In this document: piece by piece, positions 1 through 51,448 of the stretch
Position numbering within the stretch: the stretch's first letter is position 1
How the letters are laid out: each line of letters begins with the position of its first letter
NCBI GenBank assembly: GCA_040389965.1
Contig: JAZJZF010000021.1
Span: forward strand, 79,887 to 143,886
DNA: 64,000 nt
DNA from: Bacteroidota bacterium
GTDB taxonomy: Bacteria > Bacteroidota > Bacteroidia > B-17B0 > Aurantibacillaceae
Direction of reading: 5' to 3'
The notes under the pieces: model-generated
The model's input: only the letters and a program-made list of their open reading frames with translations
Told to the model about the DNA's origin: nothing
Databases searched by the model: none
Position numbers and translations under genes: made by a program

Positions 1-630
1 TAATTATAGCCGGAAACATCTTTTTTTGAAGTATTAAAATTTGTACTGTAAACCCCAATACTTGCTGTATACCATAAAATAAGCTCATCAATAAAAAACA
101 AATGATTTTGATGAGAAACAATATTTGCAACAAGGTCTTTTTTTAAAGCCCGGAAACTTGAACCAAGTCCGGCATAAGGATTCTCGACCTTTGAGATAGA
201 TTTATAAAATGCTGTAACTGCCCTTCGCGTCAATGATTTTTTGATGTTCTTAGGCATGGCGTACACAACATCTCTATCAATAGTTATAATAGAATTATAT
301 AAAGCAACAATGTCTTTAGGATCATGTTCAAAATCATCGTCAATAGTAATCACAATATTTCCCGTAGAATTATAAAAACCACACAAGGTAGCTTTATGCT
401 GCCCGAAGTTTTTAGCAAGCGAAAATGCTTTGATGTTTTTATGACTTGAGCAAATCTCTTTTATTGCCTGCCAGCTATGGTCTTTACTACAATCGTCCAC
501 AACAATGATTTCAAAAGATTTACCAAATTGGGTCAATACAGAATGAATCTCGCCAATAAGCTTACTTATGCAAGCCGCTGCATTGAACACAGGAATGATA
601 ACTGATATTTCTTTGTCTTCTTGCTGCATC
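1..630 (-). CDS. Family 2 glycosyltransferase, GtrB/ArnC/DPM1-like polyprenyl-phosphate sugar transferase (partial; C-terminus lies beyond window start)
   Basis: Absent from the ORF track because it runs off the window. ATG at 630-628, open for 210 codons to base 1. Translation MQQEDKEISVIIPVFN..IVVDDCSKD..KNFGQHKATLCGF..TGNIVITIDDDFEHDP..RRAVTAFYKSISK..GSSFRAL matches the GT-A fold and the RNFG / D.DLQ.P / G.FR blocks of GtrB/ArnC-type enzymes. Confidence 0.75.
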
Positions 631-631
631 T

Positions 632-1381
632 CTAATTAAAACCTAAAGTTAAACCACCATCCATTTTCAAACAAGTACCAGTAACCCATTTACTGGCATC
701 CGAAATAAAATAAGCCAGTGCCTGTGCAATGTCATCAGGCTCCCCTACTCCCAGAGGATACTGGGCAATCAGCTTATTCATTTCATCCGTATTGATAGCA
801 GCATCCAGTGTACTTTCAAAAATAGCTGTATTTACAAGGGCAGGCTGCAAAATGTTAACCCTTATTTTTTTAGGAACCATCTCAAGCGCCAATACTTTTG
901 CATAACCTTCTAGCGCTGCTTTTGAGCTGATATAAGGCCCTCCGCCAAAATAAGCATGTAGGGTTGATACCGAAGAAATAAACGCGATGGATGCACCGTT
1001 ATTGATTTTCTTTTGTTTTAATAATTCAGATACTGTATGTACTGCCGAAAAATAATTAACGCTAAATACATCTTCCAGGTGCCTGTCCTGTATAAATTTT
1101 ATCGGTACCGGTAAAACCTTGCCACAACAGTGTACAAAGCCATCAATACTATTCATCTCGGCAACTAATTTTTTAATATCATCGCTATGAGTGAGATCTG
1201 CTATAACGAACTGATGCTGATTATTTGCTTTTAACAACGAAAACGTTTCTTTAAGTTTTTCTTCATTTCTTGCCGTAATAATTAACTCCGCACCTAAATT
1301 GCTGAACAGAACAGCGGTTGCTCTTCCTATTCCTGAAGAGGCTCCCGTTATTAATATTTTTTTATGTAGCAATGATATCAA
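632..1381 (-). CDS. Short-chain dehydrogenase/reductase, FabG-like 3-oxoacyl-ACP reductase
   Basis: Rossmann motif ILITGASSGIGRAT and catalytic S..YxxxK (YISSKAAL). The track start at 1405 is a TTG that overlaps the upstream gene by 28 nt. I prefer the TTG at 1381, which forms a TTGA stop/start overlap with that gene. The start is uncertain; the stop is firm. Confidence 0.8.
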   Translation of the reverse strand: MISLLHKKILITGASSGIGRATAVLFSNLGAELIITARNEEKLKETFSLLKANNQHQFVIADLTHSDDIKKLVAEMNSIDGFVHCCGKVLPVPIKFIQDRHLEDVFSVNYFSAVHTVSELLKQKKINNGASIAFISSVSTLHAYFGGGPYISSKAALEGYAKVLALEMVPKKIRVNILQPALVNTAIFESTLDAAINTDEMNKLIAQYPLGVGEPDDIAQALAYFISDASKWVTGTCLKMDGGLTLGFN

Positions 1382-2439
1382 GATAATTCTATTAAAGGTA
1401 AACAAACAATATTCTTAGTTTTGACAAGAGCACTTCCCCACGAAAAACCAACTCCGAAACCGCATAAACACAGGGTCAGTGATTTTTCTTCCAGCATTGC
1501 CGAAGCTTCCGTAATCATCGTAAGTGGAATAGATGCTGAACTCGTATTGCCATATTTTTCGAGTGAATATAATACTTTATGCACATCTGTAATTTTCAAT
1601 TTTTTCCTTACAGATTCATTAATTAATTTATTAGCCTGATGAAAAACAAACAGATCTGTATCCCCAATACTTTGATTGGCCTTGGCATATAACTCATTTA
1701 CATTAGGGGATACCTCTTTTAAAGCAAAGTTAAAGATTCCTATACCATCCAATTTTAAATGCCTTTTCTCTCTTGCAATCCCCGGTTCTATCTCTACCAA
1801 TGTAAACGTATCTTCCTTAATGCCGTTCCTTGAGCCGCCATGTTCTATGTTGATCGCATCTTTCCCGGAACCATCAGACCCCAAATTAAAATACATCGTC
1901 TCTGCCTGGGGATCGTATTCAAAAGCGGTAGCAGAACCGGCATCACCAAATAAAGGATACGCGCTTTTATCTGTATATGCCGTTGATACGGTCGATTTAT
2001 CGCCCACCATCAATAATCCTTTTTTGAGCTGGCCCGAACTCATGAGGTTACTTAATACGTACATGCCATACACATAGCCCGAGCAACCTAAATTAATATC
2101 AAAAGCAAGGCACGATTTTTTAAATCCTAACCTGTCCTGCAAAATAACTGCCGAACCGGGAATAAAATAATCGGGCGATTGAGTAACGACTATAATAACA
2201 TCAATATCGTCTTTGTTCCATTGTAACTTTTCAATAAGCTGTTTCGCCGGTTCATAGCACATATCAGAGGTGGACTGATGTTCGCCTGCAACCCTTCGTT
2301 CTCTTATACCTGTAGTTTTAATAAACAGTTCACGCTCAGGCATAGTAATGTGCTCGTAATTCAAATTAGAATACACAGTAGACGGAACGCTTGCTGCGAT
2401 CCCCTTTAGTGAAACATTATTTACGGTAACAAAACTCAT
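1378..2439 (-). CDS. FabH-like 3-oxoacyl-ACP synthase III (KAS III)
   Basis: 353 aa. The Cys-His-Asn triad is present in context (NLGCSGYVYG, FVFHQANKLI, YGNTSSASIP). An ATGA overlap joins it to the upstream ACP gene. Confidence 0.85.
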   Translation of the reverse strand: MSFVTVNNVSLKGIAASVPSTVYSNLNYEHITMPERELFIKTTGIRERRVAGEHQSTSDMCYEPAKQLIEKLQWNKDDIDVIIVVTQSPDYFIPGSAVILQDRLGFKKSCLAFDINLGCSGYVYGMYVLSNLMSSGQLKKGLLMVGDKSTVSTAYTDKSAYPLFGDAGSATAFEYDPQAETMYFNLGSDGSGKDAINIEHGGSRNGIKEDTFTLVEIEPGIAREKRHLKLDGIGIFNFALKEVSPNVNELYAKANQSIGDTDLFVFHQANKLINESVRKKLKITDVHKVLYSLEKYGNTSSASIPLTMITEASAMLEEKSLTLCLCGFGVGFSWGSALVKTKNIVCLPLIELS

Positions 2440-2675
2440 TCTTTTATATTTTCCTTAACAATATTGTAAAGATCTCTTACTGTAGAGGTATTTTTTAAAT
2501 TATCAGCCGTTAGCTGAACATCAAAATTTGCATCAATAAACGCAATAATAATAAGCGCATACATAGAACTCCAGTTTTTTATATCCCGGTAATTTGTATC
2601 CGGAAACACCGTATTTGGTTCAACGTCTTCAAACTCCGCTACCAGTTGCTCCGTAAATTCTTCTGCTGATATCAT
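2436..2675 (-). CDS. Dedicated acyl carrier protein-like protein
   Basis: 79 aa, acidic, of four-helix ACP size. The candidate phosphopantetheine serine lies in NWSSMYAL rather than the canonical DSL. It sits between two KAS III genes. Confidence 0.65.
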   Translation of the reverse strand: MISAEEFTEQLVAEFEDVEPNTVFPDTNYRDIKNWSSMYALIIIAFIDANFDVQLTADNLKNTSTVRDLYNIVKENIKE

Positions 2676-2689: not shown

Positions 2690-3670
2690 TTAATATTCAA
2701 TAATCGTTGCTCCCCAGCTATGGCCAATACCAAAGCCTGCCAGCATTACCTTCATGCCTTTTTTTAAAACTCCCTGCTGTTCGGCATCATCTAAAGCCAC
2801 CGGTATAGTAGACGCTACAGAGTTTCCAAAATTCTTAATATTTATAAAGAATTTTTCTTTAGGGATCTTACATTTTTTGCGAATAACCTCCAGCATAAAG
2901 TAGCTCGCCTGATGAAACACAAACAAATCTATATCTTCCAACTGGTATTGGTATTTTGCTAAAATATCTTTTACTAATCCCGGTACCAGTTTAACAGCAA
3001 ATAAAAATATTTCTGTACTCTGCATTTTCATCTGGCCATATGGCAGATTTGTTTTCTGTAGTATTTCTGGCGTACTGGGTTCCCTGGCAGCACTATTTTC
3101 AACAATTAAATTTTTGTAGCCGCTTCCATCCGTTCCAAAAATAAAATGCTGGGTAAATGAAGATTTGGTAATAATTGTAGCCGTTGCAATATCACTAAAA
3201 ATACTCCTTAGTTCCAGATCATCTTTATGAATAACCGTAGTTGGCATATCGCCGGTAAGAAATAAAACCTTTTCGCACATACCGCTCATTAAATAGGCAT
3301 GCGCCATTCCCAGCCCATATATATAGCCCGAACAGCCATAAGGCAGATCAACACAGCCAATATTTTTTGATAAGCCAAGCCTGTCCTGCAAAATACAGGA
3401 GGTTGCCGGGGCCTTATAATCAAAACCTTCCGAACAAAAGATCAGGAAATCGATCTCGCTTTTATCAATCTGATGTTTTTCTAAAAGAACATCAAAGGCT
3501 TTTACAGCCATATCAGAAGATAATTCGCCCGGAGCAGAAATATACCGCTGTTCAATACCTGTGTTTTTAAATAATTGCTCTTTTGACGTATTAAATTGTG
3601 TTCCTAAATCATCATTCGTTAAAATAGCCGCGGGAAGGTAAGTTGCAATATGATTTAGTAAAACGCCCAT
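2690..3670 (-). CDS. FabH-like 3-oxoacyl-ACP synthase III (second paralogue)
   Basis: 326 aa with the triad present (PYGCSGYIYG, FVFHQASYFM, FGNSVASTIP). First gene of the minus-strand operon. Confidence 0.85.
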   Translation of the reverse strand: MGVLLNHIATYLPAAILTNDDLGTQFNTSKEQLFKNTGIEQRYISAPGELSSDMAVKAFDVLLEKHQIDKSEIDFLIFCSEGFDYKAPATSCILQDRLGLSKNIGCVDLPYGCSGYIYGLGMAHAYLMSGMCEKVLFLTGDMPTTVIHKDDLELRSIFSDIATATIITKSSFTQHFIFGTDGSGYKNLIVENSAAREPSTPEILQKTNLPYGQMKMQSTEIFLFAVKLVPGLVKDILAKYQYQLEDIDLFVFHQASYFMLEVIRKKCKIPKEKFFINIKNFGNSVASTIPVALDDAEQQGVLKKGMKVMLAGFGIGHSWGATIIEY

Positions 3671-3856: not shown

Positions 3857-4249
3857 ATGAAAAAACTTCTATCAATTGTATGCCTGTCTGTTTTGATGCT
3901 TTCTGCAAAAGTATATGCCCAATCAAATATCACATGGACTATTAAAGATAATGTTCAAAAAGGGTTCTTTAAAACAAGTACTACTTTCAACACCCATTTT
4001 AGTGGCTTTACTACTAAAGCTCAGTCTGATGTTTTAATTCAAAAAATGAAAGCATTTAGCGATGTAGCTTCTGCAACAACTACAAATGCGGATGCAAATG
4101 GTAACTGCGATTTAAAATTGGTTATGAAGTCGGCTCATGAAAAAAGATATTACCTGGGAGTAGCACAAAAACTAGGGATTCAATACGTTGAAGTAAACGG
4201 TAATAAAAAAACACCTGCCCAGTGGATGGAAGGTAAAACAAAAAAATAA
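3857..4249 (+). CDS. Small secreted hypothetical protein
   Basis: 130 aa with an N-terminal signal peptide (MKKLLSIVCLSVLMLSAKVYA/Q). A hairpin terminator follows. I recognise no family. Confidence 0.55.
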   Translation: MKKLLSIVCLSVLMLSAKVYAQSNITWTIKDNVQKGFFKTSTTFNTHFSGFTTKAQSDVLIQKMKAFSDVASATTTNADANGNCDLKLVMKSAHEKRYYLGVAQKLGIQYVEVNGNKKTPAQWMEGKTKK

Positions 4250-4271
4250 GCATTAAAGATTTTAATAAGTA

Positions 4272-4301
4272 AGCGTCTCAAAATTCTGGGACGCTTTTTT
4301 T
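4272..4301 (+). terminator. Rho-independent terminator
   Basis: agcgtctca / tgggacgct stem (one G-U pair) followed by a T7 run. Confidence 0.6.
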
Positions 4302-4372: not shown

Positions 4373-6313
4373 ATGATTGCCATATATAAACAACATAAAA
4401 AATTAGTCCTCATATTTTTTATACTTACCTTTTTACTTTACGGCAATGCTTTAAGAAATAAATATGCTCTCGACGATGATTACATTACCGTAACAAATTT
4501 TCCGGTTAAAGGACAGAATTATGTTCCTAATAACGAGCTCATATCAAAAGGCTTTGCCGGAATCGGTAAAATATGGAAAAGCAGGTATGCACACGACGGA
4601 GAATCATCGTTTGATTACAGACCAATTACCAGTACTTCTTTTGCAATAGAATATGGCATTTTTGGCCAGAATCCTTTTGTGAGCCACCTCATCAATATTA
4701 TATTATACGGGCTCACTGTTTTTGTGCTGTTCTGTGTGCTCCTATTGTTATTCGAATCTTACGAGAACAAATTGCTGATAGCAACACTTGCCGCATTTAT
4801 TTTTTTAATTCTCCCTTCGCATACCGAAGTAGTAAATAATATTAAATGCCGCGACGAAATTTTCTCATTTCTCTTTCCGCTCTTTGCATTATGGCACTGC
4901 TTAAAAGCTTATGAAAAGCCTTCTGCAAAACACCTGATCTTAATCATCGTGTTTTTAATTTTGGGATATTACAGTAAGCGTACCGCTGTTATTTTCTTAG
5001 GCGTTATCTCATTAAGCTTTATTCTTTTCAGAAAAGTAAATCTTAAAAAAGTATTAGTAGCGTTTGGCCTGTTTGCTGTCATTTTTATAATTGCGTTCAT
5101 TATCAAGAAACAGGTTATCTCCGAAACATCGATCCGTAAATTTTACCACTTCGAAAACCCTATGTTTACTGAACATTTTTCGTTTATGGATAAACTAATG
5201 GCGGCTATTAAAACCATTGGATACTATATTAAATTTTCTATAATCCCCTACCCTTTCCGTAATTATTATGGAACCAACGTGATTGATATTTCATCAAAAC
5301 CCGACATTTATTTATTTTCAGCTATTTTATTTTTAGCAGGCAGTGGTTGGTATTTCTATAAAACAAAAAACAAAATTTTCCTGTTCGGAGCATTATTATT
5401 CCTCGGAGGTGTTTTTCCTTTCTCTAATTTAATGACACCCGTTGCAGGCGTTGTTGGAGAACGACTCGGCTATAATGCATCCTTGGGAGTTGCTGTAATG
5501 CTCTGTATTTTAATAGCACCTCTTTTTAAGTCTTCAACTTCTTTTACACTGAATGGCCTGCTAAAAAAACCGACTGTATATTTTTCGCCGGTTATATTAA
5601 TTTGTGTTATTCTTATCTGGACAAGGAATACAAACTGGAAAGACAAACTGACTTTATTTGAACATGATATCACACACCTTGAAGTTTCAGCAAAGGCCAA
5701 TAGCCTTATGGCAAACGAATACCTGGAGATGCTGAAAAATCAGAATTTTAAATACCCTCCTGAAACATTAATTCAAAAAGGAATTAAATATTATACGACC
5801 GCCATTAAAAATGATTCCAGTTTTTATTCGGCCTACAATAACGTGGGGGTAATTTACTACTCTTACCTCCGCGATCTTCCTAATGCCAAATTGTATTTTA
5901 AATTAGCATTAAAATCACGCTCTGTCTACCCACAGGCATACGAAAACCTTGGTAATTGCTACAAACAGGAAAACAAAATAGATTCAGCATTTACGTGTTA
6001 TGTCAATGCTTTAAAACAAGATCCAAAACAATACACGGCATATGTAGCCTGTATTAAATTGTTTTATGAAGCAAAACAATACAAAAAAGCCATTGCTATA
6101 AACAAAATAGCACTAAGCTATTATCCTACCGATTACACACTTGTAGGCCAGGAAGCCGACGCTTATTTTATGTTAGGCAATATTAAACTGGCACTCGAAA
6201 AATACGAGGAGGCTTATAATATTTCACCAAGTCCTCAATTAGCCAATTACCTTGCTCTTAAATACCTTGAGCTGGGCGATACGTTAAACTATACCTTATA
6301 TAAAAACAAATAA
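4373..6313 (+). CDS. TMTC/PMT-like GT-C membrane glycosyltransferase with C-terminal TPR domain
   Basis: 646 aa: a polytopic N-terminal half and TPR repeats in the C-terminal third. Ordered motifs are YALDDDY, DYRPI, HLINIILYG, LPSHTEVV..CRD and RNTNWKDKLTLFEHD (DUF1736-like). Confidence 0.8.
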   Translation: MIAIYKQHKKLVLIFFILTFLLYGNALRNKYALDDDYITVTNFPVKGQNYVPNNELISKGFAGIGKIWKSRYAHDGESSFDYRPITSTSFAIEYGIFGQNPFVSHLINIILYGLTVFVLFCVLLLLFESYENKLLIATLAAFIFLILPSHTEVVNNIKCRDEIFSFLFPLFALWHCLKAYEKPSAKHLILIIVFLILGYYSKRTAVIFLGVISLSFILFRKVNLKKVLVAFGLFAVIFIIAFIIKKQVISETSIRKFYHFENPMFTEHFSFMDKLMAAIKTIGYYIKFSIIPYPFRNYYGTNVIDISSKPDIYLFSAILFLAGSGWYFYKTKNKIFLFGALLFLGGVFPFSNLMTPVAGVVGERLGYNASLGVAVMLCILIAPLFKSSTSFTLNGLLKKPTVYFSPVILICVILIWTRNTNWKDKLTLFEHDITHLEVSAKANSLMANEYLEMLKNQNFKYPPETLIQKGIKYYTTAIKNDSSFYSAYNNVGVIYYSYLRDLPNAKLYFKLALKSRSVYPQAYENLGNCYKQENKIDSAFTCYVNALKQDPKQYTAYVACIKLFYEAKQYKKAIAINKIALSYYPTDYTLVGQEADAYFMLGNIKLALEKYEEAYNISPSPQLANYLALKYLELGDTLNYTLYKNK

Positions 6314-6332
6314 CCTCAACGGTGCATACCTG

Positions 6333-8219
6333 ATGAAACTTACAGAACAATTATTGCAAAAAAAATTCCTGTTATTTTTCATGGTATCGCTTTTGCTTTA
6401 TGGCAATACCTTAAAAAACGGTTATGGCATCGATGATCAATTTGTAACCGAAAATAATTATACCAACAAAGGTTTAAAATCCATTAAAAAGATTTTCACA
6501 TCATACTATGCCGACGATGGAAAAAACAATTACGAATACAGGCCTTTTGTAAAAGTTTCTTTTGCACTCGAACATCAGTTGTTTGGTGTAAGGCCATGGG
6601 TTGGTCATTTAATAAACATTATGCTTTATGCACTTTGTTTGTTATTGCTCTACAAAGTTTTACTCATCATTTTCTACAAACATCCTCCGCTATTTAGCCT
6701 TTGCATTGCTCTTGTTTTCGCATTTTTGCCAGTCCATTCAGAGGTGGTAGCAAGTTTAAAAAACAGGGATGTATTGCTGTGTTTTATTTTTTGCATGTGT
6801 ATTATTATAAATGTAGATGCATTTTTCAGAACCAATAATTACCTGTACATTGTATATGCCGCTATCCTTTCGCTAATAGGCTTTTTAACCAAGTATGATC
6901 TGCTTCCTTTTCTGGCAATTACTCCTCTTGTGTTATATAAAAAACATAAGCTTAAAATTAAAGTAGTACCAATACTTATAACTGTTGTTATTTTTCTGGG
7001 TGGTTTTTTTCTTTCGAAACAGGTAAAACATTTATTTCTTAATCGTTCGTTAAGCGAAAGGATTTTTAGCTATACAGAAAACCCTTTATTCTTTAACCAT
7101 GCACTAAGTTTAAAAATATCTGCAGCATTTAATTCTCTGGGGTTTTATTTAAAAATGATGGTGTTTCCTTCAAAAATGGTTTCTTATTATGGTTATGACA
7201 CTATTCCTATCTCACACCTATTTTCGGCTTACGCTATCATTGGCATTATTTTATTTGCAGGAATGGTTTTTTATTTCTTTAAACTGTTTAAAACTGAGAG
7301 TCCTGTGTGGTTTGCCATTGTGTTCTCAGGGCTTTCCATATCCATGTACCTCAACGTGGTTAAAGTAGTGCCGGGTATAGTAGCCGAGCGTTTTATGTTT
7401 TTTGCATCCATCGGCTTTTGTATTTTCATTGTTCATCTGCTATTTACCTATCTCAATAAAAACAATAGTTCCGAAACATTTCAAAAAACAACTACCAATT
7501 TCCGAATAGGTATCCTTGCTCTTTTAGTGATGTATTCGGGCTTTACAATTGCCCGCAATTTTGAATGGAAAAACAGGATTACATTATTTGAGCACGACAT
7601 TAAAAAAAGACCGGAATCCGTTGCATTAAATTTACTTTACAGTAATGAAATACTAACAGGGCTAAGACAGCAGCAAAGCTACTTTTTGACTACTCAAAAT
7701 AAAATGAGTTACATCTCTAAAGCTGCTGAAAGTTTAAACAATGCACTAAAGGTTGACTCTCTTAATACAACTGCTTTAAGTAACCTCGCATATATAAAAC
7801 ATAGTATTTACAAGGACTACAGTGGCGCTATCCCTTATTACAAAAAAGCACTTCGGAAAGATTCAACAAAATTTGAAAGCCAGTTCAATCTGGCCTATTG
7901 TTTATATACTGTTGGTAATAAAGAAGAAGCCGAACACCTTATTTTAAAAATTTACCCGGAACATGCTGATAATCAGCAGGTGCTCGATTTAATGAATTAT
8001 ATTCTAATTGATAATAAAAAATCAACCCAGGGAATTCTTATTTTCGACGAATTGGCAAAAAAGCAACCTGAAAACAATAATATTAATATCATATTAGGAA
8101 ATTTCTACATCTCTATTTCTGACACAATCAATGCGAAAAATGCTTATTCGAAAGCCCTCGAAAACGACCCAAATAACCCACAACTGTTTAAAATAGTCGA
8201 TAAACTGAGTAAACATTAG
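6333..8219 (+). CDS. TMTC/PMT-like GT-C membrane glycosyltransferase with C-terminal TPR domain (tandem paralogue)
   Basis: 628 aa with the same motif series (YGIDDQF, EYRPF, HLINIMLYA, LPVHSEVV..NRD, RNFEWKNRITLFEHD) and TPRs. It lies 19 bp downstream of its paralogue. Confidence 0.8.
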   Translation: MKLTEQLLQKKFLLFFMVSLLLYGNTLKNGYGIDDQFVTENNYTNKGLKSIKKIFTSYYADDGKNNYEYRPFVKVSFALEHQLFGVRPWVGHLINIMLYALCLLLLYKVLLIIFYKHPPLFSLCIALVFAFLPVHSEVVASLKNRDVLLCFIFCMCIIINVDAFFRTNNYLYIVYAAILSLIGFLTKYDLLPFLAITPLVLYKKHKLKIKVVPILITVVIFLGGFFLSKQVKHLFLNRSLSERIFSYTENPLFFNHALSLKISAAFNSLGFYLKMMVFPSKMVSYYGYDTIPISHLFSAYAIIGIILFAGMVFYFFKLFKTESPVWFAIVFSGLSISMYLNVVKVVPGIVAERFMFFASIGFCIFIVHLLFTYLNKNNSSETFQKTTTNFRIGILALLVMYSGFTIARNFEWKNRITLFEHDIKKRPESVALNLLYSNEILTGLRQQQSYFLTTQNKMSYISKAAESLNNALKVDSLNTTALSNLAYIKHSIYKDYSGAIPYYKKALRKDSTKFESQFNLAYCLYTVGNKEEAEHLILKIYPEHADNQQVLDLMNYILIDNKKSTQGILIFDELAKKQPENNNINIILGNFYISISDTINAKNAYSKALENDPNNPQLFKIVDKLSKH

Positions 8220-8316: not shown

Positions 8317-11300
8317 ATGAAAAAAGTAATCCTATCACTAATGTTAGTAGCGTTGTCTCTATGTGGATTTTCGCAACTCTCCGTGGCTCCTAATCAAACA
8401 GCTACGAATTTGGCTAACTATCTATTAGGCGGCGGTGTTACCATCACTAATGCCCAATTGACCTGTCCCACAAATGCAAATGCCATATTTACTAATGGGG
8501 CAACTACCAATTTGGGATTAAACAGTGGTATTGTGCTCACAACAGGTTCGGCAGCTAATATTGCCAACGGAAATGGTACAAACAGTAGTGTTAACAATGG
8601 AGCTTCCGGGATTCCGCAAATGGCACCAATAAGCGGTACCAGTAGTAATTATGACGGCTGTATGCTCGAATTTGATATTAATCCAAAATGTTCTCCCTTA
8701 AATATCAGGTACAAATTTGCCTCGGAAGAATATCCTGAATATGTAGGTGCAGGATACAATGATGCTTTTGGCTTCTTTATTACCGGGCCTAATCCGTCGG
8801 GAGGAAATTATGCAAACTATAACTTAGCCGTTGTACCCGGAACAAGCTCTCCCGTTACTATTGATAATATTAACTCAGGAAATAACTCCTCTTATTACAT
8901 TACAAATACAGGCAGTACTATTGTGTATGATGGTATGACAACCGTTTTAACGGGAAGTGCCAACGTAACACCATGTGCCGACTACCATCTGAGGCTGGCT
9001 ATTACAGATGGGGGTGACCAATATTTTGATTCGGGTGTATTCCTTGAACAATCGGGTATTTCCTGTTCATCTCCAACAGTGAATGCCAGCGGTGCTACTA
9101 TATGCGCCGGACAATCTGCTACATTAACAGCATCCGGAACAACTACCTACACCTGGTCAACGGGTTCAACCGCTAATAGCATAGTCGTTTCTCCATCCTC
9201 AACAACATCCTACACCGTGGGAGGAAGTAATATCGGGATCTGTGTACAAACATCTAAAGTCATTACGGTTACGGTTAACAACGCTCCTACAGCAGTTGCA
9301 GGGCCAACAAAAGTATTAACCTGTGCTACAACTGCTACTGTTCTTTCCGGATCAGGCGGAGGCACTTATGCATGGTCAGGGCCTGGTATATTATCCGGAG
9401 GTTCTACAGCATCGCCAACCGTTAACCAACCCGGAAACTATACATTAGTAGTTACATCGGCAGGATGCCCTTCTTTACCATCAGTAGTAAACGTATCGCA
9501 AAATACAACACCACCTTCTGTTTCTTCTTCTGCAGGCGCATTAACCTGTGCTGTCACATCAGCCAATGTAACGGCGAACACTGCTGCTACTCCGGTCACT
9601 TATAATTGGTCCGGCCCCGGTATAACGGGTGGAGGTACAACCTCGTCACCTACTGTAAATCAACCCGGAACTTATAACTATACGGTTACCAACACTTCCA
9701 ATGGCTGTGCCACAACCGGATCACAGGCTATTACACAAAACATTGTTGCTCCTGTTGCTACATCCAGTGTTACAGCAGTACTAAACTGTACCTTAACTAC
9801 AGTTAATACGGTAGCAACCACTACTACTACACCTGTTACTTATAACTGGTCCGGTACAGGTATTACGGGTGGAAGCACTACCTCGTCACCTACTGTAAAT
9901 CAACCGGGCACATTCAATTATACGATCACCAGTACATCCAATGGCTGTACTACGACAGGCTCACAGGCGGTCACTCAAAATATTGTGCAACCTACTGTTG
10001 CCTCGAGTGCGCCAACTGTATTAAATTGTACGTTAACGTCTGTAAATGCAACAGCAAGTACAACCACTACTCCTGTTACTTATAACTGGTCTGGTCCGGG
10101 AGTTGTTTCAGGAGGTACAACTCCTACTGTTACAGTAAATCAACCGGGCACATATAACTATACAGTTACTGCTACTAATGGTTGCCAAAGAATAGGATCG
10201 CAGGCGGTTACTCAAAACATTGTAGCTCCCACAGTAGCCTCATCTGCCGGAGTATTAAACTGTACATTAACTTCTGTAAATGCTATTGCCAGTACTACTA
10301 CAACGCCTGTAACTTATAACTGGGGAGGGCCGGGTATTACAGGTGGCGCAACAACAGCAACGATTACGGCAAACCAACCGGGCACATATAATTATACGGT
10401 AACTGCAAATAACGGCTGTACAAAAACCGGCACACAAGCTATTACTCAAAACACGGCAACTCCTTCGGTAACAATGCCTGCCACACAAACCATTACCTGC
10501 GCAGCACCTTCTGTTACGCTCGTATCTTCGGCGTCTCCTTCCACCAGCATACCTGTTTGGACTGGCGGAGTATCGAGCGGAGTTAATAGCTATACTGCTA
10601 CTGCATCTTCAGCCAATACCTATACATTAACCATAACTGATCCGGCCAACGGATGTACTAAAACAGGAATAGTTCAGGTTGTTCCAAACGCGGGCTTCCC
10701 TACCGTGTTGGCAAGCAATACCAATTCGTTAAACTGTAACGTTACTTCTGCTCAGGTAGTAGCAACAACATCTACCACACCTGTATCTTATAGCTGGACA
10801 GGCCCTGGAATTACAGGCGGCGCAACAACAGCTACGGCATCTGTTAATGCCGGCGGACAATACACTGTAGTAGTTATGAATACAATTTCTTTATGTTCTT
10901 CAACTATTACAATAGCAGTACCTTTTAATACAACCGTTCCTACGCCTTCTATTACTGCATCAGGTTCTATTACCTGTACTTCGCCAACAGTTGCGTTAAA
11001 TGGTTTTCCAACAACCGGTGTAACTTATACCTGGACGGGCTCAGGAATAACAACCGGTCCTAACCTGCAAAATGTAATTGTAAATGCAGGAGGTAACTAT
11101 GTTCTAAACGTTACCAACATATCTAACGGTTGTACAGGCACACAAAATATATCGGTAGCAACCAACACCACTGCACCAAGTGTTAACTTAACTACCACAT
11201 CTTACACAACAACTTGTGCTGTTCCTAATGCTACATTTAGTGCCGTAGCAAATCCTGCTGCCAGTACTACCTATAGCTGGACATCTCCTCCTACAGGATC

Positions 11301-12912
11301 GTTGAACAGTTATACAGTATCAAATCCTATCGCCAGCGGTAGCGGTATTTTTACTGTAGCAGTTACAAATACAGTGAATGGTTGCGGAACATCCGCTATA
11401 ACACAAGGTACTGTACAAATAACTGCTGATGCAGGATTACCTTCAGCTACGATATCACAATCCTCAGCATCATTAACCTGTATTACTTCTGTGCAAACAG
11501 CTTCAGTTTTTACAACTCCGTCCTCTAACATTACATACACATGGAGTCCTGCACCTGCTACAGGTTTGCATGCTTCTGTGGCTACATTTACTACTCCTGG
11601 TACTTATGTATGTGCTTTTACGAATACAGCAAACGCTTGCCCTGGCAGTACGCAAATTGTGATCGTTACCAATACAACCACACCAACTGCAAATGTTACT
11701 CCTACGGTATCTTTAAATTGTTACTCTGTAACATCTACGATCAGCTCAACGGTTACACCTGCTTCAGGTATTACCTATACATGGGCAGGTAGCGGAATTG
11801 CAGGAGCCAATAACGGATCATCTGTATCTGTAAACAGTGCAGGAGTTTATACCTTATCTGTTTTAAATGCAGCTAACGGATGTTCAGCAACAGCGACGTC
11901 CTCTGTTATCAATAATACAACACCGCCAACATTAAGTGTTACACCATCAAGTACAGTTATTACCTGCGGTTCTCCAACATTAAATTTAAATGCGACTACC
12001 AATAGTACAGTTATTCCTGTATGGAATACACCAACAGGAAACGCTTATAACCCAATTGTAGCGGTAACTGCCGGTAATTATACGGTAAGCGTTATTGATC
12101 CTGTATCGGGTTGTACGGCATCCCTTACTCTTGCTGTGGCAGGAAGTACAGTAGCTCCTGCACTCAGTGTTACAGCTAATGCGATTATTCCTTGCGGATC
12201 AAGTTCGATAGATCTTTCGGCAGCGGCTACAGGTGGCGGCATCACCTATAACTGGGCAGGGCCAACAAGCGGAAGTATTATTGCGGGCGCTAATACAGCA
12301 ACTCCCATAGCAACAGCAGCCGGTGTTTATACAGTTACTATTACAAACAGCTATGGCTGTACAAGTTCTGCTACTGTAGCGGTAGCGCAAAGCTCGGTAA
12401 ACGCTGCATTTACAGCCGATCCTACTACAGGAGTTATTCCTTTAAATGTAAATACCACTAACCAAAGTACAGGTGGTAGTCTTACTTATCAGTGGAATTT
12501 CGGTAACGGTTCAACATCAACAAACGTAAGCCCCGGAACTGTTTATAACACAAGCGGAACTTATACTATTGTTCTCATTGCATCATCAGGTTCATGTGCA
12601 GATACCGCAACAGCAATTATTGTTGTAGAAGATAACATGTCTCTGGAAATACCTAATGTGTTTACTCCTAATAATGATGGTACAAATGATATTTTTACTA
12701 TTAAATCAACCGGTATCAAAGAAATATCATTACAGATCTTTAACCGTTGGGGAGAAAAACTATACGAATTTACAGGAACCAAAGCTGCCTGGGACGGTAT
12801 GACCCCTCAAGGAGCAAAAGTACCGGATGCCACTTATTTTTACTTCGTAAAAGCCTATGGTTTTGATGATAAGGAAATAGAAAAGCATGGTACCGTTAAC
12901 CTCTTCAGGTAA
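8317..12912 (+). CDS. Giant secreted surface protein with a choice-of-anchor-L-like N-domain, many Ig-like repeats, a PKD domain and a T9SS type B sorting domain
   Basis: 1531 aa with a signal peptide. N-domain: LEFDI..YKFASEEYPEY..YNDAFGFFITGPN. More than a dozen roughly 80-aa two-Cys repeats (C...Y[ST]W[ST]GPG...G.Y...V...NGC). PKD motif WNFGNGS. The C-terminus IPNVFTPNNDGTNDIF..FNRWGEKLYEF..WDG..PDATYFYFV..KHGTVNLFR matches the gliding-motility-associated (CHU_C/SprB-type) CTD. Confidence 0.9.
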   Translation: MKKVILSLMLVALSLCGFSQLSVAPNQTATNLANYLLGGGVTITNAQLTCPTNANAIFTNGATTNLGLNSGIVLTTGSAANIANGNGTNSSVNNGASGIPQMAPISGTSSNYDGCMLEFDINPKCSPLNIRYKFASEEYPEYVGAGYNDAFGFFITGPNPSGGNYANYNLAVVPGTSSPVTIDNINSGNNSSYYITNTGSTIVYDGMTTVLTGSANVTPCADYHLRLAITDGGDQYFDSGVFLEQSGISCSSPTVNASGATICAGQSATLTASGTTTYTWSTGSTANSIVVSPSSTTSYTVGGSNIGICVQTSKVITVTVNNAPTAVAGPTKVLTCATTATVLSGSGGGTYAWSGPGILSGGSTASPTVNQPGNYTLVVTSAGCPSLPSVVNVSQNTTPPSVSSSAGALTCAVTSANVTANTAATPVTYNWSGPGITGGGTTSSPTVNQPGTYNYTVTNTSNGCATTGSQAITQNIVAPVATSSVTAVLNCTLTTVNTVATTTTTPVTYNWSGTGITGGSTTSSPTVNQPGTFNYTITSTSNGCTTTGSQAVTQNIVQPTVASSAPTVLNCTLTSVNATASTTTTPVTYNWSGPGVVSGGTTPTVTVNQPGTYNYTVTATNGCQRIGSQAVTQNIVAPTVASSAGVLNCTLTSVNAIASTTTTPVTYNWGGPGITGGATTATITANQPGTYNYTVTANNGCTKTGTQAITQNTATPSVTMPATQTITCAAPSVTLVSSASPSTSIPVWTGGVSSGVNSYTATASSANTYTLTITDPANGCTKTGIVQVVPNAGFPTVLASNTNSLNCNVTSAQVVATTSTTPVSYSWTGPGITGGATTATASVNAGGQYTVVVMNTISLCSSTITIAVPFNTTVPTPSITASGSITCTSPTVALNGFPTTGVTYTWTGSGITTGPNLQNVIVNAGGNYVLNVTNISNGCTGTQNISVATNTTAPSVNLTTTSYTTTCAVPNATFSAVANPAASTTYSWTSPPTGSLNSYTVSNPIASGSGIFTVAVTNTVNGCGTSAITQGTVQITADAGLPSATISQSSASLTCITSVQTASVFTTPSSNITYTWSPAPATGLHASVATFTTPGTYVCAFTNTANACPGSTQIVIVTNTTTPTANVTPTVSLNCYSVTSTISSTVTPASGITYTWAGSGIAGANNGSSVSVNSAGVYTLSVLNAANGCSATATSSVINNTTPPTLSVTPSSTVITCGSPTLNLNATTNSTVIPVWNTPTGNAYNPIVAVTAGNYTVSVIDPVSGCTASLTLAVAGSTVAPALSVTANAIIPCGSSSIDLSAAATGGGITYNWAGPTSGSIIAGANTATPIATAAGVYTVTITNSYGCTSSATVAVAQSSVNAAFTADPTTGVIPLNVNTTNQSTGGSLTYQWNFGNGSTSTNVSPGTVYNTSGTYTIVLIASSGSCADTATAIIVVEDNMSLEIPNVFTPNNDGTNDIFTIKSTGIKEISLQIFNRWGEKLYEFTGTKAAWDGMTPQGAKVPDATYFYFVKAYGFDDKEIEKHGTVNLFR
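9598..10470 (+). repeat. In-frame tandem repeats, period 240/240/234 bp (about 80-aa domains)
   Basis: The landmark acttataa[ct]tgg (TYNW) recurs at 9598, 9838, 10078 and 10312. The units translate to near-identical TYNWSGPGITGG..TVNQPGTYNYTVT..NGC..QNIVAP..LNCTLT domains. Confidence 0.85.
12643..12909 (+). other. Segment encoding the T9SS type B C-terminal sorting domain
   Basis: LEIPNVFTPNNDGTNDIFTIKSTG...HGTVNLFR. By eye it aligns closely, with scattered mismatches, to the DNA of 18995-19261. Confidence 0.8.
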
Positions 12913-13418: not shown

Positions 13419-13462
13419 CATCAACCTCATACCTCTCCCCTACAATGCCAAATTTATTTATC

Positions 13463-16400
13463 ATGAAAAAATTTTACTCGTCCTTAATGATAGGTTTCAT
13501 ATGCCTGTTATTTTCAGGTAACCTATTCTCGCAGGGTAATACCTGCGCAACTGCAGAACCATTTTGTACAGCAGTTGGCTCACCCTATATCTTTACAAAT
13601 GTAACAGATGGCAATACGGGCTTTTGCAGCTCCTGCCCTGCGGCCGGTTGTTTAAGTTCAACTCCCCGCCCATCCTGGTTTTATGTAAAATCCTTAACTG
13701 CAGGGGCAATGACCTATAGCCTTTCACAATCTACAAGCATTGGAGGAACTCCTAACATTGATGTCGATTTTATTGCTTACGGACCTTATTCTGCCGCTCA
13801 ATTTACCAATGCCTGTGCATCATTACTTACAGGATCATGTTCAGGAGATCATAACTGTATAGGTAATATAGAAGATTGCAGTTATTCAATTGCATCTACT
13901 GAAACCATGACTCTTAGCCCAACCGCGGGCGGACAATACTACCTGATCATGATCACCAATTATGACGGTGTTGCAGGTTATATTACGTTTACACAAACCG
14001 GTGGTAATGGCTCTGATTGTGCGATTACCTGCCCTGATGATAATTTTGTACTGGTAGGAACAAATAAATCAACCAGCGCAGATGTTCCAAGTGGAAGCAC
14101 CCTAAATTGTAATCAGAATATTCAGTTGGATCCTCCTGATCTGGGTGGTTTTTCATACAATCCTTTTACCGATCAGTTGACACCTTGTATGCAGGTATAC
14201 ATTGAGCCTTTCCGCAGTAACTTAGCAACCAATGGCTCTATCGATGTTTATGAAAACGGATTTGATTCATGGTTTGCCTGTCCTTCGGGTTGTGGCGGTG
14301 CCATTGGTGGAACTACAGCAACCAACGGTGTCAATTTTGGTTGGTTCCTTGGTCAGGCAGATCCTAATTACAGCCATCCCAGCGTGTTTTGCCGAACCGG
14401 TACAATAGGCGCTAATACAGCAACCGTAAGTTTAAGAAGCTGTTGGGACAATACACAAATTCTTGCCGGACCACAGGCATGGAACTCTACAACATGTTTT
14501 ACATTAACAGCTGCTGCATCTCCAACTGCTTATGGTACTGCAGCTTTTTCAGTTACTCCGGTAGCAGGCGCGGCGGGCTTAAGCGATACCCATTGGGGGC
14601 GTGCAACCATTACCCCATCTTTGATCCCGAGCGGAACATATACTGTTACTTACACCTTTAACAATGGAAAATGCGGAGATCTGCATGGGAAATATGTATT
14701 TACAATTCCACCTACTCCTACTATCACTGCAGCGTCGGCAGCAAGCCAGACAATATGTGCAGGCAGCACTGTGGCTGCTGAAAACTTTGTTATAACCCCT
14801 GCAGCAGGTACTTATGTATGGAACAATGACAATACCACTATTGGTGTTGGAGCTTCCGGTACTTCAACTATTAATGCATATACAGCACCAAATATAGGAA
14901 GCACCACTATAGGCAATTTTACCATTACACCTACAGCATCCGGTTGTATTGGTACGCCAAGAACATTTACCATAACTCTTAATCCTAAACCCACGGTATC
15001 CATCGTATCAAATCCTGCATCCAGTATTTGTTTAAACAGTTCTCTTACATTTACATCAAGTGGTGCAAATACTTACACCTGGAGTTCATCTGCCAACGGA
15101 GGCTTAGGCTCTACATCAGGAACTAACGTGGGTGCTACACCTACTGCAACGGGAACAATAACTTACACAGTAAATGCTACATCAGTAGCAGGCTGTACAA
15201 ACACCGCTACTCAAAATATTACTGTTAATGCTTTACCTGTTGTAACTATTACGCCAGCCAGTAGCGGAACATTATGTTCAGGAACAAGCATCACTCTTAC
15301 AGGATCAGGTGCTTCTACGTATGCATGGCAAGCGCCTGCAGGTGGCGGATTAAGCGGCACATCGGGTTCGGTAGTAACAATTACACCTACTGCTTCCCCA
15401 TTAACTTATACCGTAACAGGAACTGCTGCCAATACCTGTACTAACGTAGCTATAAGAACTATTACGGTTATAGCTACACCAACAATCTCAGTATCCAATC
15501 CTTCTGCTACACAATCGAGCACTATATGCAGTGGCAACTCTGTTGTATTAACCGCTTCAGGCGCGGGAACATTTACATGGAGTCCCGCCACAGGATTAAG
15601 TTCTACCACAGGTAGTCCGGTAACCGCTAGTCCTACAAACACAGCCTCTCCAACAATTTATACCGTAACTGGTACTTCTGCTGCGGGTTGTATCAGCCCT
15701 GTTTCTTCGCAGGGAACATTTACGGTTACGGTTAATCCTATACCTAACGTTTCTATATCATCCACGCCAGCATCAAGCGTTTGTTTAAATAGTGCTTTAA
15801 CGTTTACGGCAAGCGGCGCAAATACTTACACCTGGAGTTCATCTGCCAACGGAGGTTTAGGCTCTACATCAGGTGCTAACGTGGGTGCTACACCTACTGC
15901 AACGGGAACAATAACTTACACGGTAAATGCTACATCAGTAGCAGGCTGTACAAACACCGCTACTCAAAATATTACTGTTAATGCTTTACCTGTTGTAACT
16001 ATTACGCCAGCCAGTAGCGGAACATTATGTTCGGGAACAAGTATTACCTTAACCGGGTCGGGTGCCACTTCTTATGCATGGCAATCACCCGCAGGTGGCG
16101 GCTTAACTGGTTCGGGATCAGTTGTAACTATTGCTCCTACTGTATCACCTGTAACCTATACCGTAACAGGAACTGCCGCTAATACCTGTACTAATATAGC
16201 TATAAGAACCATTACCGTTATGGCTACACCAACTGTATCAGTATCCAATCCTTCTGCTACACAATCGAGTACCCTATGCAGTGGCAACTCTGTTGTACTA
16301 ACAGCATCAGGCGCAGGAACATTTACATGGAGTCCTGCCACAGGATTAAGTTCTACCACAGGCAGTCCGGTAACCGCTAGCCCTACAAATACAAGTTCTC

Positions 16401-44566: not shown

Positions 44567-46663
44567 TTATTCCTTCACAATTTTAAAATATTGAATGTTC
44601 TTTTCTTTATCTTTCAATGTAAAAAGATATACTCCTGAACTTTCATTCTCTAAATGTATTTCACCTTTGTGATTATTGAATGAATATGTTTTCACCAACG
44701 CTCCGTATACATTAAATATTTCCACCTGATATTCTCCTTCTTTTGCAGTTTCTATATGGTAAATGCCTGCTCCGGGATTAGGGTAAACTCGATCAACAAA
44801 TGTTTCGGTTACTTTTACATCCTTCAACTCAGCGGGTGCATCTACCTCTTCATGTGTATTTTTCCTAAAGACAAAGGTTGCACAATCAAAATAATAGGGA
44901 CCAATATGCGCATTAAAATTTGTGTTAGAGGTTGCCACAAAACCTGCCTGCAAATTAATATAACTACCCGCTGTTGCCTTAAAATCACTTGACTGTATTT
45001 GGTAGTTATTAAAATTTGTATTTGTAATGGCATATGAAGAGACATTAACACTTGTTACCGAATTATTTACGTAGGTTAAAGTGTTGATTGTAGGTCTTTG
45101 GGCCTTTGTAAGATAATAAAACACTCCTGGACCAAAGCTACTTGCATAAGAAACTACGTCACATTCTGTTGCTGTCACCCTTATTTCCTGTATAAGACTA
45201 CCTGTCGGTAGATTATAAGTAAAATCACCATTAGCATCTGTATATGTGTTTGCGTATTGAGTAATTGCATTTCCTGGAACATTATATTTTATTTCTGCAA
45301 TTGCATCTTTAACGGGAGTAGTCGTACCCGCTAATCTAACTATCCCGTTTGCATAGTTCCCTGTATAAGGAGCATTAGAGTAATTATAATAATTCGCAGG
45401 TTGGCTTGCTGTTCCTAATGTTGTCGGATTAAAATTAGTTATTTCCTGAGCTGCCGGCTTCCATACAAAAGGTGAGCCCGTCGAAGCTCCATCATTTGAC
45501 TGTATTAAACCCCAAAAGGGACCTGCATTACCTCCACTATAATTATTCGGGCTGTCGTCTGAAAATTCCCACCAGGAATAGCCGGTTGCTCCAAAATCTC
45601 TGGCTGCATTTAAGGTTTCATGTAGAAAATCTACCTGCTCCTGAATGGTTCCTCCACTCTCATTTTGATCATAATAGGAACTAAAACTGGTTGTATTCAT
45701 AGGATGAGCTGTTAAACCTGTTTCACCAACAATCCAGGGAAGTTTAACATTATTCTTATACCACCAATAGTCTGACTTCATACGGTTTATGGCATCTGCA
45801 GCCGTTGTAGTATTGCCAGCTCTTTTTGAAAAAGGATAATTGTGTAAAGAGGCAAAGTCAATATTCAACATATTGGGATCCCAGAAAAAGGTACTCGATA
45901 CTTCCCAGAAGCCAATCGTTGACAAAATTTGTGAATTAGATTTAAGAGCATCGTTCCATTCTTTCACTTTTTGGCAGGCATGGGTTTTTGTCCAATAAGC
46001 GTTGCCTGAAACTGTTGGTTCATTAAAAAAATCTACCGCAAGCAAGGCAGGCTCATTTGCAAAACGTTTTCCAAACTTATTAAGGTAATTTACATACCCT
46101 GCTTGATACACAGAATTTCCCGGAGAATCATCTCCCATTTCTGACTTACCGCATGTTAAAACAATTACTTTCAAACCTTCATCTGAAGCAGCTTTCAATG
46201 TGACTGCTGTTACGTCCAATAATAATTGATCATACAGACTATTCGTAAAAGGAATATTTATCGCGTTATTTCCCATCCAATCTGTTGTTTCAATATTAGG
46301 GTTGTACTGTGCCCCCCCATATACCCTGATCGTATTAAATCCCTTCGCTTTAATAGCTGCAAAATCTTTCCGCATAGCAGCATTTGCATTCGCATAATTA
46401 TACACATTTGGAGAAAAGGTATTATTAGGAAAATATGAATGAGAGCGCGACGGGTAAAAATTGGGATAAGTATAATTATTTGTATTAGCACCAGGACCAC
46501 GAGTAACTTCCATAAAATAATTTGCCACCACCGCAAAAAAATCATTTGATCCGCATTTCAATTTTTGCCCGTCGATGGTTATAAAATCACTGCATTGGGC
46601 AAAAGATTTACATGAAATGACTAATAGCACAATAGCTATTTTGAAAACATTTTTATATTTCAT
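44567..46663 (-). CDS. Secreted glycoside hydrolase family 5-like enzyme with a T9SS type A sorting domain
   Basis: 698 aa with a signal peptide. GH5 acid/base context DFFNEPT and nucleophile context WIVGETG. C-terminus VYPNPGAGIYHIE...GVYLFTLKD...YFKIVKE. Confidence 0.75.
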   Translation of the reverse strand: MKYKNVFKIAIVLLVISCKSFAQCSDFITIDGQKLKCGSNDFFAVVANYFMEVTRGPGANTNNYTYPNFYPSRSHSYFPNNTFSPNVYNYANANAAMRKDFAAIKAKGFNTIRVYGGAQYNPNIETTDWMGNNAINIPFTNSLYDQLLLDVTAVTLKAASDEGLKVIVLTCGKSEMGDDSPGNSVYQAGYVNYLNKFGKRFANEPALLAVDFFNEPTVSGNAYWTKTHACQKVKEWNDALKSNSQILSTIGFWEVSSTFFWDPNMLNIDFASLHNYPFSKRAGNTTTAADAINRMKSDYWWYKNNVKLPWIVGETGLTAHPMNTTSFSSYYDQNESGGTIQEQVDFLHETLNAARDFGATGYSWWEFSDDSPNNYSGGNAGPFWGLIQSNDGASTGSPFVWKPAAQEITNFNPTTLGTASQPANYYNYSNAPYTGNYANGIVRLAGTTTPVKDAIAEIKYNVPGNAITQYANTYTDANGDFTYNLPTGSLIQEIRVTATECDVVSYASSFGPGVFYYLTKAQRPTINTLTYVNNSVTSVNVSSYAITNTNFNNYQIQSSDFKATAGSYINLQAGFVATSNTNFNAHIGPYYFDCATFVFRKNTHEEVDAPAELKDVKVTETFVDRVYPNPGAGIYHIETAKEGEYQVEIFNVYGALVKTYSFNNHKGEIHLENESSGVYLFTLKDKEKNIQYFKIVKE

Positions 46664-46694
46664 AATTTTTCGTTTTTAATTCGTTATAAATTCT

Positions 46695-48827: not shown

Positions 48828-48831
48828 GGCC

Positions 48832-50073: not shown

Positions 50074-50755
50074 TTTGATTTGGTTTTAAATTTATAATTA
50101 CAGTTAATTAAAGTTTTGTTATAGGCATGACTAGTTCATTACCTGCTTTCATGCATAGTCAAGTTAGTTTCAATAATGGTTTTTTGCTTATTCTAATTTC
50201 CTTAGAAATTATTTTTTATAAAGTGAATTTCTCAGTTGCGTTTTTACTCGTTAAATATGATCCAATATTACAACATCAATTTGAAACAAACCTTACCGTA
50301 AAGGGGATTTTTAGCACATTTTATTTTTGCGAAAAAGTTCCGTTTCATAATGCTCAATACTCAAAAAACATATTTACAATACAAAGAAACGAAATAAAAA
50401 AACACAAAATACAAGGCCTTTTGAATCTAAACTTTTTAAAAACATAACCTCCTGTTTTTTAAGTCTATTTTATTTTTATAGCACAAAATTGCTACAAAAT
50501 ATAGCAAAATATACGCGTAAAATTAACAGAAATTTAACAAAGAACACATCTCACATATCCTCATGTAACTCAATAATAACAAGGGTTTTGAATCTCACTT
50601 CGGCAATGACAAAGCATACAGACGGTTTTACTCAGTGGAAATCATAAACAAAAAAAACAGTATTTGCTTTAAATAAAAATCAAGTAATACTACTTGCTTT
50701 TTATAGACTAAAAATCTAAATATGAACTCATAACTATTCCAATTTGAATAAAAAA

Positions 50756-51253: not shown

Positions 51254-51389
51254 ATGTAGATGTTACTATTTTTTAAGGCCATTACTTGTCCCGAACTCGT
51301 TTCGGGGTGGTATAGCCTGTTTTAAACTCTCATCTCTTTATACTTTAGCAAACAGGCTATTTCATTAGGCAAAACTAATCTTTTAAATT

Positions 51390-51428: not shown

Positions 51429-51448
51429 AATTATTAGTTTTTTATAAT

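Follow-up and report, generated by a model that had tools for sequence, protein, structure and literature searches.

O-mannosylation of cadherins depends on the TMTC proteins, and in Streptococcus mutans the Pgf system, in which the GT2 glycosyltransferase PgfS works with membrane partners of glycosyltransferase fold class C (GT-C), glycosylates the adhesins Cnm and WapA. ArnC is an undecaprenyl-phosphate transferase for 4-deoxy-4-formamido-L-arabinose (Ara4FN). TMTC1-4 are protein O-mannosyltransferases of cadherins and protocadherins, classified in CAZy as GT105 and published with 11 transmembrane (TM) helices; mutation of TMTC3 causes cobblestone lissencephaly (PMC7801869). Bacteroidota possess a general O-glycosylation with the sequon D-[ST]-[AILVMT], which is periplasmic and reaches cargo of T9SS, the type IX secretion system (PMC11611037). 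Here we describe a locus in a stretch of 64,000 nucleotides from a Bacteroidota bacterium of the Aurantibacillaceae (GenBank assembly GCA_040389965.1, contig JAZJZF010000021.1, positions 79,887 to 143,886 of the forward strand), below called the window. Two adjacent genes, A and B, very probably encode GT-C enzymes of TMTC type whose active site lies in the periplasm. They lie between a cassette that may make their sugar donor and two giant T9SS proteins that may be their acceptors. The two genes are:

4373..6313, forward strand: TMTC-like GT-C glycosyltransferase A, an open reading frame (ORF) of 646 aa with a PMT_2 match above the cut-off and tetratricopeptide repeats (TPRs)
6333..8219, forward strand: TMTC-like GT-C glycosyltransferase B, an ORF of 628 aa, paralogue of A

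A preliminary description of this DNA had called A and B tandem paralogues, and the ORFs, separated by a spacer of 19 bp (6314-6332), agree with this; by BLASTP their products are 32% identical over 537 aa (E 9e-67). It had also given each protein a polytopic N-terminal half and a TPR tail. Both parts are seen in the AlphaFold2 (AF2) model of A, with a membrane domain at residues 1 to about 425 and a TPR domain at about 440 to 646, and Pfam finds C-terminal TPRs in A and B alike. The Pfam family PMT_2 (PF13231) is matched by A with 29.6 bits, above the cut-off of 26.1, and by B with 22.6 bits, below it, as well as by 35 of 66 wider relatives. NCBIfam returns only generic TPR matches for the two proteins.

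The relationship to the animal enzymes was studied with nine N-TMTC sequences of metazoans (Eisenhaber 2021, Additional file 1, PMC7801869). By BLASTP, A and B are 22-27% identical to these over about 390-440 residues, while there is no match to ArnT. Profiles give a much clearer picture. In hhalign the profile of the bacterial TM half is aligned to the N-TMTC profile over 381 columns with a probability of 99.8% (E 1.2e-27), and a broader Bacteroidota alignment reaches 99.9% (E 3.9e-35) over 387 columns. This comparison is decisive: at the level of sequence, the resemblance to TMTC is far beyond chance, and the earlier proposal that A and B are bacterial TMTC homologues is confirmed, at E 4e-35 over those 387 columns.

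The predicted structure is in agreement with this. The AF2 model of full-length A has a predicted local distance difference test score (pLDDT) of 88, and the TM half modelled alone has a pLDDT of 93.2 and a predicted template modelling score (pTM) of 0.93. The latter model contains 11 TM helices, the number published for the TMTCs. The short loops hold 16 Lys/Arg on the side of the N-terminus and four on the opposite side, and by the positive-inside rule this asymmetry predicts a cytoplasmic N-terminus. The acidic loop with the DD pair, the other conserved residues and the TPRs are then predicted to be periplasmic, and the helix map together with the charge counts bears out, as a prediction, the earlier claim that the DD loop faces the periplasm.

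When the model of the TM half is searched with Foldseek, the list is led by the oligosaccharyltransferase subunit STT3 (8age_A, E 5e-4), PglB, Pmt4 (9i5k_A) and Pmt1/2; TM-scores to solved GT-C enzymes are 0.43-0.52, and the matches include 6p25. Matches obtained with the full-length protein in PDB and Foldseek were set aside, being swamped by TPR proteins, and the TM half was remodelled alone for this reason. The PMT family (yeast Pmt1/2 and Pmt4, mycobacterial PMT) resembles A and B in its GT-C_A fold and in having two acidic residues together in the first loop, but A and B lack the MIR domain, carry TPRs in its place and have 11 TM helices. Searches of PDB sequences with phmmer and with a 41-sequence profile of the TM half gave no match even at E<=10, so that no TMTC structure could be used for comparison.

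Two other identities had been raised for A and B, O-antigen ligase and an ArnT-like modifier of lipid A, and they are neither. Pfam gives no Wzy_C match at E<=1 in either protein, and both ArnT and WaaL are absent from the top 50 Foldseek matches of the TM-half model. The hhalign probability against the sequence of ArnT 5EZM is 0.4%, which is a weak control, as this one sequence is missed by the TMTC profile too.

Seven motifs have been published for the TMTCs (PMC7801869, Table 4). The strings quoted in the preliminary description are all present in A and B, respectively: YALDDDY and YGIDDQF, DYRPI and EYRPF, HLINIILYG and HLINIMLYA, LPSHTEVV..CRD and LPVHSEVV..NRD, and RNTNWKDKLTLFEHD and RNFEWKNRITLFEHD. 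The acidic pair of motif M1 is kept in A (D34 and D35, nt 4472-4477) and in B (nt 6432-6437); it aligns to D52/D53 of TMTC1 and is invariant in 41-66 relatives. In M2, SHKSYRP has changed to SSFDYRP in A and NNYEYRP in B, so that YRP alone is retained. The H..N...H of the TMTCs is mostly kept, reading H..N...Y in both proteins. In the M3 region, HP.HTE.V..GR.D, the sequence of A is kept as PSHTEVV..CRDE, while B reads RDV and has lost the acidic residue. M4 has gone from KET to KRT in A and KYD in B, keeping the Lys and losing the Glu, and in M5 DW has been replaced by YY, keeping the aromatic residue and losing the Asp. The DNP of the TMTCs appears as ENP, which we count as kept. M6 (PxxP) is partly kept, and M7 (ERxxY) is kept as GERLGY in A and AERFMF in B.

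In general, the membrane domain is homologous end to end with that of the TMTCs, sharing DD, YRP, H..N, the HTE..R.E core of HP.HTE.V...R.[DE], [DE]NP, ERxxY and RN.[DNE]W....TLF. The earlier claim of a full motif series is therefore an overstatement: these blocks are kept, but the His and Lys of SHKSYRP, the Glu of KE(T/Q) and the DW of M5 are not. M2, M4 and M5 hold the sugar, phosphate and metal contacts modelled for the TMTCs.

The fifth block of the preliminary description had been called DUF1736-like. The block itself is genuine: it reads RNTNWKDKLTLF in A and RNFEWKNRITLF in B, and TMTC3 proteins carry RNWDWESEYTLF directly after their last TM helix, in register with it. However, it is not DUF1736, as it follows TM11, whereas DUF1736 is the loop that links TM7 with TM8, residues 258-331 in TMTC3 (PMC7801869). 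The RN.DW block is absent from the supplements of the TMTC paper and was checked on TMTC3 proteins instead. As for DUF1736 proper (PF08409), A has no match, and the match of B at residues 245-310 stays below threshold (E 0.69, 10.3 bits against a cut-off of 27). Human TMTCs match this family at E<1e-30, and every fetched eukaryotic TMTC of at least 550 aa carries it, save the N-terminally partial P0289 and P0321. Matches at E<=0.01 are seen in 21 of the 66 wider relatives, with 1e-7 as the best value. The DUF1736 loop of A and B is thus divergent from that of the TMTCs.

Across the 41-66 members aligned, the near-invariant positions, in the numbering of A, are D34, D35, Y82-R83-P84, H105, H150, E152, K202, Y299-G300, R364, R418, N419 and W422. 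All of them map to the periplasmic face of the model.

The two paralogues differ at a few of the conserved sites. Orthologues of B were sought in the related loci collected from GTDB, which are numbered here with an L. They sit directly after A in L002, L007, L008 and L010; other loci have a third type of paralogue as their second enzyme. In the B orthologues of the window, L002, L008 and L010, R-D-[V/I] takes the place of R-D-E, the Glu of which is found in 82 of 92 family members. The same four have K-[Y/F/L]-D in the third periplasmic loop, while the motif search gave no match in L007. These substitutions hint at a different specificity or a partner role for B: its acidic residue could have shifted to another site, or B could assist A as a specialised partner. 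We rejected the idea that B is a pseudoenzyme, as DD, YRP, H.E, the Lys, ER and RN..W are all retained.

To a large degree A and B thus follow the TMTC plan, in which a GT-C domain of 11 TM helices starts from a cytoplasmic N-terminus and leads into TPRs across the membrane. The compartment differs, being the periplasm for A and B and the endoplasmic reticulum for the TMTCs. Repetitive beta-sandwich adhesion proteins are the clients of the TMTCs and the suspected clients of A and B. The donors probably differ as well: dolichyl-phosphate-linked mannose serves the TMTCs, and an acylated amino sugar linked to undecaprenyl phosphate is likely for A and B. This suggestion comes from the genes upstream of A, a cassette that is transcribed divergently from the A-B pair:

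1..629, reverse strand: ArnC/GtrB-like GT2, N-terminal 208 codons, running off the left edge of the window (translation and jackhmmer match)
632..1405, reverse strand: short-chain dehydrogenase or ketoacyl reductase (Pfam adh_short_C2 and KR), adjoining the GT2 in relatives
1378..2439, reverse strand: beta-ketoacyl-acyl carrier protein synthase III (KASIII, FabH-like), copy 2 (Pfam ACP_syn_III and ACP_syn_III_C)
2436..2675, reverse strand: acyl carrier protein (ACP) of 79 aa, an ORF whose orthologue in L002 matches NCBIfam ACP models
2690..3670, reverse strand: KASIII (FabH-like), copy 1 (Pfam)

The GT2 is complete in L002, where it matches the NCBIfam model of ArnC end to end (E 1.2e-33) and that of PgfS at E 5e-29; judged by eye, its C-terminus holds two hydrophobic helices. 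In relatives the cassette continues with a PseH-like N-acyltransferase (GNAT) and OlsC/LpxO-like hydroxylases, and in L002 also with sulfotransferases. Relatives at 69%, 55%, 54% and 45% identity have this layout too.

Parts of this arrangement resemble known systems. As in ArnC/ArnT and other three-component systems, an ArnC-like polyprenyl-phosphate GT2 is linked to a GT-C enzyme that faces the periplasm; however, A and B are of TMTC type with a TPR arm, no flippase is found at the locus and the acceptor is probably a protein. With Pgf the locus has in common a GtrB/ArnC-like GT2 beside membrane transferases and surface adhesins. The phylum and the envelope are different, and the Pgf membrane proteins have no TPRs. 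The gene logic of the segment 632-3670 is that of wfpC-wfpG in Flavobacterium psychrophilum, which encode a ketoacyl synthase (KAS), an ACP, a second KAS, a ketoreductase and an acyltransferase, but those genes belong to a Wzy-dependent O-antigen cluster, while here the genes accompany an ArnC-like GT2 and TMTC-like GT-C enzymes. The F. psychrophilum set has been proposed as the source of the 3,5-dihydroxyhexanoyl group on UDP-Qui2NAc4N (PMC6519341). Taken together, an ArnC-like GT2 and an acyl cassette suggest that the donor is an acylated amino sugar on undecaprenyl phosphate and not mannose, and the mannosyl donor that the analogy to TMTC implies is doubtful.

We surveyed gene linkage in 79 GTDB loci. 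A GT2, a KASIII and a GNAT are found within 10 kb of the TMTC-like gene in 7 of 10 close and in 8 of 34 distant loci (of at least 15 kb). The cassette occurs in varied orders and orientations in L023, L027, L030, L035, L045, L048, L054, L059, L066 and L080, and this linkage, kept through rearrangement, argues for a functional connection. That A and B take their donor from the ArnC-like cassette is to us about equally easy to believe and to doubt.

On the other side of A and B lie two candidate acceptors:

8317..12912, forward strand: giant protein 1, 1531 aa, with choice-of-anchor L, PKD and a T9SS type-B C-terminal domain
13445..19264, forward strand: giant protein 2, 1939 aa, with Ig_7/PKD repeats and a T9SS type-B C-terminal domain

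Ser and Thr make up 30.8% of giant 1 and 33.2% of giant 2, and the giants are almost uncharged, with about 1.4% Lys+Arg and about 2.3% Asp+Glu. In giant 1 a Cys-containing unit of about 79 aa recurs regularly and is recognised by N[AQ][PGA]G. A 192-aa ORF on the reverse strand inside giant 2 (16156-16734) is most likely spurious. The general O-glycosylation of Bacteroidota and the one proposed for A and B are alike in being periplasmic and in acting on exported proteins, but the sequon D-[ST]-[AILVMT] is found once in giant 1 and not at all in giant 2. This near absence argues for a separate, dedicated route.

The position of the giants is a recurrent feature. In loci below 42% identity, giant CHU_C proteins account for 10 of the 225 genes at most two positions from a TMTC-like gene, against 2 of the 442 genes farther away (Fisher p 5e-4); in close loci the counts are 10 of 59 near and 1 of 138 farther. 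Giants are thus about 10-fold enriched beside TMTC-like genes. The preliminary description had suggested one enzyme per giant. Repeated modules of an enzyme, sometimes a small gene, and a giant do occur in L012, L004, L043 and L037, but in L005 and L006 a single enzyme stands with two giants. We put the case for the adjacent giants as acceptors of A and B a little short of even.

From these observations we propose the following route. In the cytoplasm, the two KASIII enzymes, the ACP, the ketoreductase and a PseH-like acyltransferase beyond the edge of the window would build a short hydroxyacyl group on an amino-sugar nucleotide. The ArnC-like GT2 would move the acylated sugar to undecaprenyl phosphate, and a flippase would carry the lipid-linked sugar across the inner membrane. 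A and B would then pass single sugars from the lipid donor to Ser or Thr of clients held by the TPRs, with catalysis assigned to the Asp-Asp pair in the first periplasmic loop. The likeliest clients would be the two adjacent, Ser/Thr-rich type-B T9SS giants, modified in the periplasm before export. A periplasmic route of this kind, dedicated to O-glycosylation of the neighbouring giants and supplied by the ArnC-like cassette, has in our judgement roughly an even chance of being right, since both donor and acceptor are read from gene linkage. Homology, fold, topology, conserved residues and gene linkage are what the analysis shows, while donor, acceptor and the way A and B share the work are inferred. 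More tentative is the wider idea of a client-specific O-glycosylation in Bacteroidota, with an ArnC/ArnT-like build that ends in TMTC-type enzymes, an N-(hydroxyacyl) amino sugar on undecaprenyl phosphate that is moved to the repeat domains of the giants, and paralogues matched to particular giants; we regard this as possible but rather unlikely.

A number of observations weigh against the proposed route. Both metal ligands modelled for TMTC (Glu in M4, Asp in M5) are absent from A and B, and the chemistry of A and B may consequently differ from that of TMTC. No flippase is found near the locus. The small conserved ORFs (130, about 146 and 109 aa) have no family match and, judged by eye, no hydrophobic stretch beyond a signal-peptide-like N-terminus, and they are accordingly not membrane proteins and not GtrA/ArnE-like. 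The locus also yielded no amino-sugar dehydratase and no aminotransferase. In about half of the distant loci neither the cassette nor a giant is present within 10 kb, and the close-clade loci are not independent, as their synteny may be inherited. Further, with the OlsC/LpxO-like hydroxylases of the relatives the cassette could make a lipid instead, and its linkage to the enzymes could reflect shared regulation of envelope genes and not a shared pathway. TPR arms are also able to bind glycans.

The alternative that survives best is a decoration of the envelope in the style of ArnC/ArnT, in which an acylated amino sugar is added to lipid A, core, O-antigen or another envelope polymer, the TPR arm binds that polymer or a partner protein, and the giants are bystanders. 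The best match of the GT2 is indeed ArnC, the acyl cassette has a precedent in an O-antigen cluster (PMC6519341), lipid hydroxylases of OlsC/LpxO type are part of the cassette in relatives, and many family members have no giant nearby. However, no similarity to ArnT is detected in A or B, and protein-modifying GT-C enzymes lead the fold matches. The TMTCs, the closest homologues of known role, act on proteins, and the enrichment beside giants and the repeated enzyme-giant modules also speak against it. We consider this alternative unlikely.

Slightly less likely still is that A and B are classical protein O-mannosyltransferases, using a polyprenyl-phosphate-mannose made elsewhere, and that the GT2 and acyl genes are unrelated to them. 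The strong homology to TMTC and PMT_2 is what one would then expect; one homologue has been labelled 'protein O-mannosyl-transferase' by the Joint Genome Institute (JGI), and the frequent absence of the cassette in distant loci fits as well. Against this, the residues modelled as mannose or metal contacts in TMTCs, found in SHKSYRP (His and Lys), KE(T/Q) (Glu) and DW (Asp), are not conserved, and the sole linked lipid-sugar synthase is ArnC-like, accompanied by acyl-sugar genes in a linkage that survives rearrangement.

Least probable, and in our view improbable, is that A and B modify many periplasmic and surface proteins, or that B is a non-catalytic heterodimer partner of A as in Pmt1-Pmt2: the family is very large and often found away from giants, the acidic residue after the conserved Arg is lost in four B orthologues and PMTs act as dimers (PMC7759382), but B retains the conserved series from DD to RN..W listed above and the enrichment near giants favours some specificity.

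If the client-specific pathway with paralogues matched to giants exists, it would be a prokaryotic counterpart, and possibly an evolutionary precursor, of the cadherin-specific glycosylation by TMTCs. The selection of folded beta-sandwich clients by TMTCs could then be studied in a model open to genetics. The locus presents a concrete triad of a donor-making cassette, a transferase pair and candidate clients, and it could turn an anonymous family of TPR repeat proteins into a defined glycosylation pathway. Further, it could explain the solubility or function of giant, almost uncharged, Ser/Thr-rich T9SS surface proteins. If the acceptor is instead lipopolysaccharide, A and B would still belong to a new, TPR-bearing branch of envelope-modifying GT-C enzymes.

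The enzymes themselves are ordinary members of their family, and it is the genomic context of the pair, with cassette and giants, that is new. At E<=1e-3 a search with the membrane half retrieves 18,519 cluster representatives, of which 1,262 still match at E<=1e-30, and the scan of GTDB gives at least 596 confirmed loci, in at least 596 GTDB species; with a family this large the A-B pair is nothing unusual. The 80 listed loci span Bacteroidales, Flavobacteriales, Sphingobacteriaceae, Saprospiraceae, Chitinophaga and other Bacteroidota groups. In databases the members are named 'tetratricopeptide repeat protein', with the JGI label as a single departure. The preliminary description had stated that bacterial members have no assigned function. 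In line with this, no functional study and nothing else of relevance came out of a literature search that asked what bacterial TMTC-like or DUF1736 proteins do and whether Bacteroidota have an O-glycosyltransferase with TPRs. The 'two novel tandem genes' reported in Flavobacterium collinsii are Wza/Wzz-like and unrelated.

Two loci with a Bacteroidota-type arrangement carry names from outside the phylum: L007 (CALRIU020000004.1, Hydrocarboniphaga daqingensis) and L080 (JBLMZZ010000068.1, Omnitrophica WOR_2). These are likely to be mislabelled or contaminated bins of metagenome-assembled genomes, with transfer as the alternative.

Between the cassette and enzyme A there are two further features:

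3857..4249, forward strand: 130-aa protein with a putative signal peptide (by eye) and no Pfam or NCBIfam match
4271..4296, forward strand: terminator-like hairpin (stem of 10 bp, then a run of T), lying after the 130-aa gene and before enzyme A

The 130-aa gene adjoins enzyme A on its upstream side, a position kept in the close clade. As a strong terminator-like hairpin follows it, enzyme A probably has its own promoter. A scan for sigma-70 promoters gave no information, with 35 sites where 32.5 are expected. Proteins of 109-150 aa that have a signal-peptide-like N-terminus and no family match are seen directly upstream of a TMTC-like gene or of giants at several loci: in the window (3857-4249, forward strand), in L004 (19821-20261), in L005 (18488-18925) and twice in L006 (12074-12403 and 16520-16972). 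They might be chaperones or adaptors.

Elsewhere in the window, the region 44567-54538 on the reverse strand encodes three proteins with type-A T9SS sorting domains (Por_Secre_tail), one of them with Amidase_2 and CUB domains. A 413-aa ORF in the same region (48832-50073) has no family match. Finally, a 479-aa protein at 60442-61881 on the reverse strand has an FGE-sulfatase domain and could be a component of gliding or of the T9SS of GldJ/PorK type.

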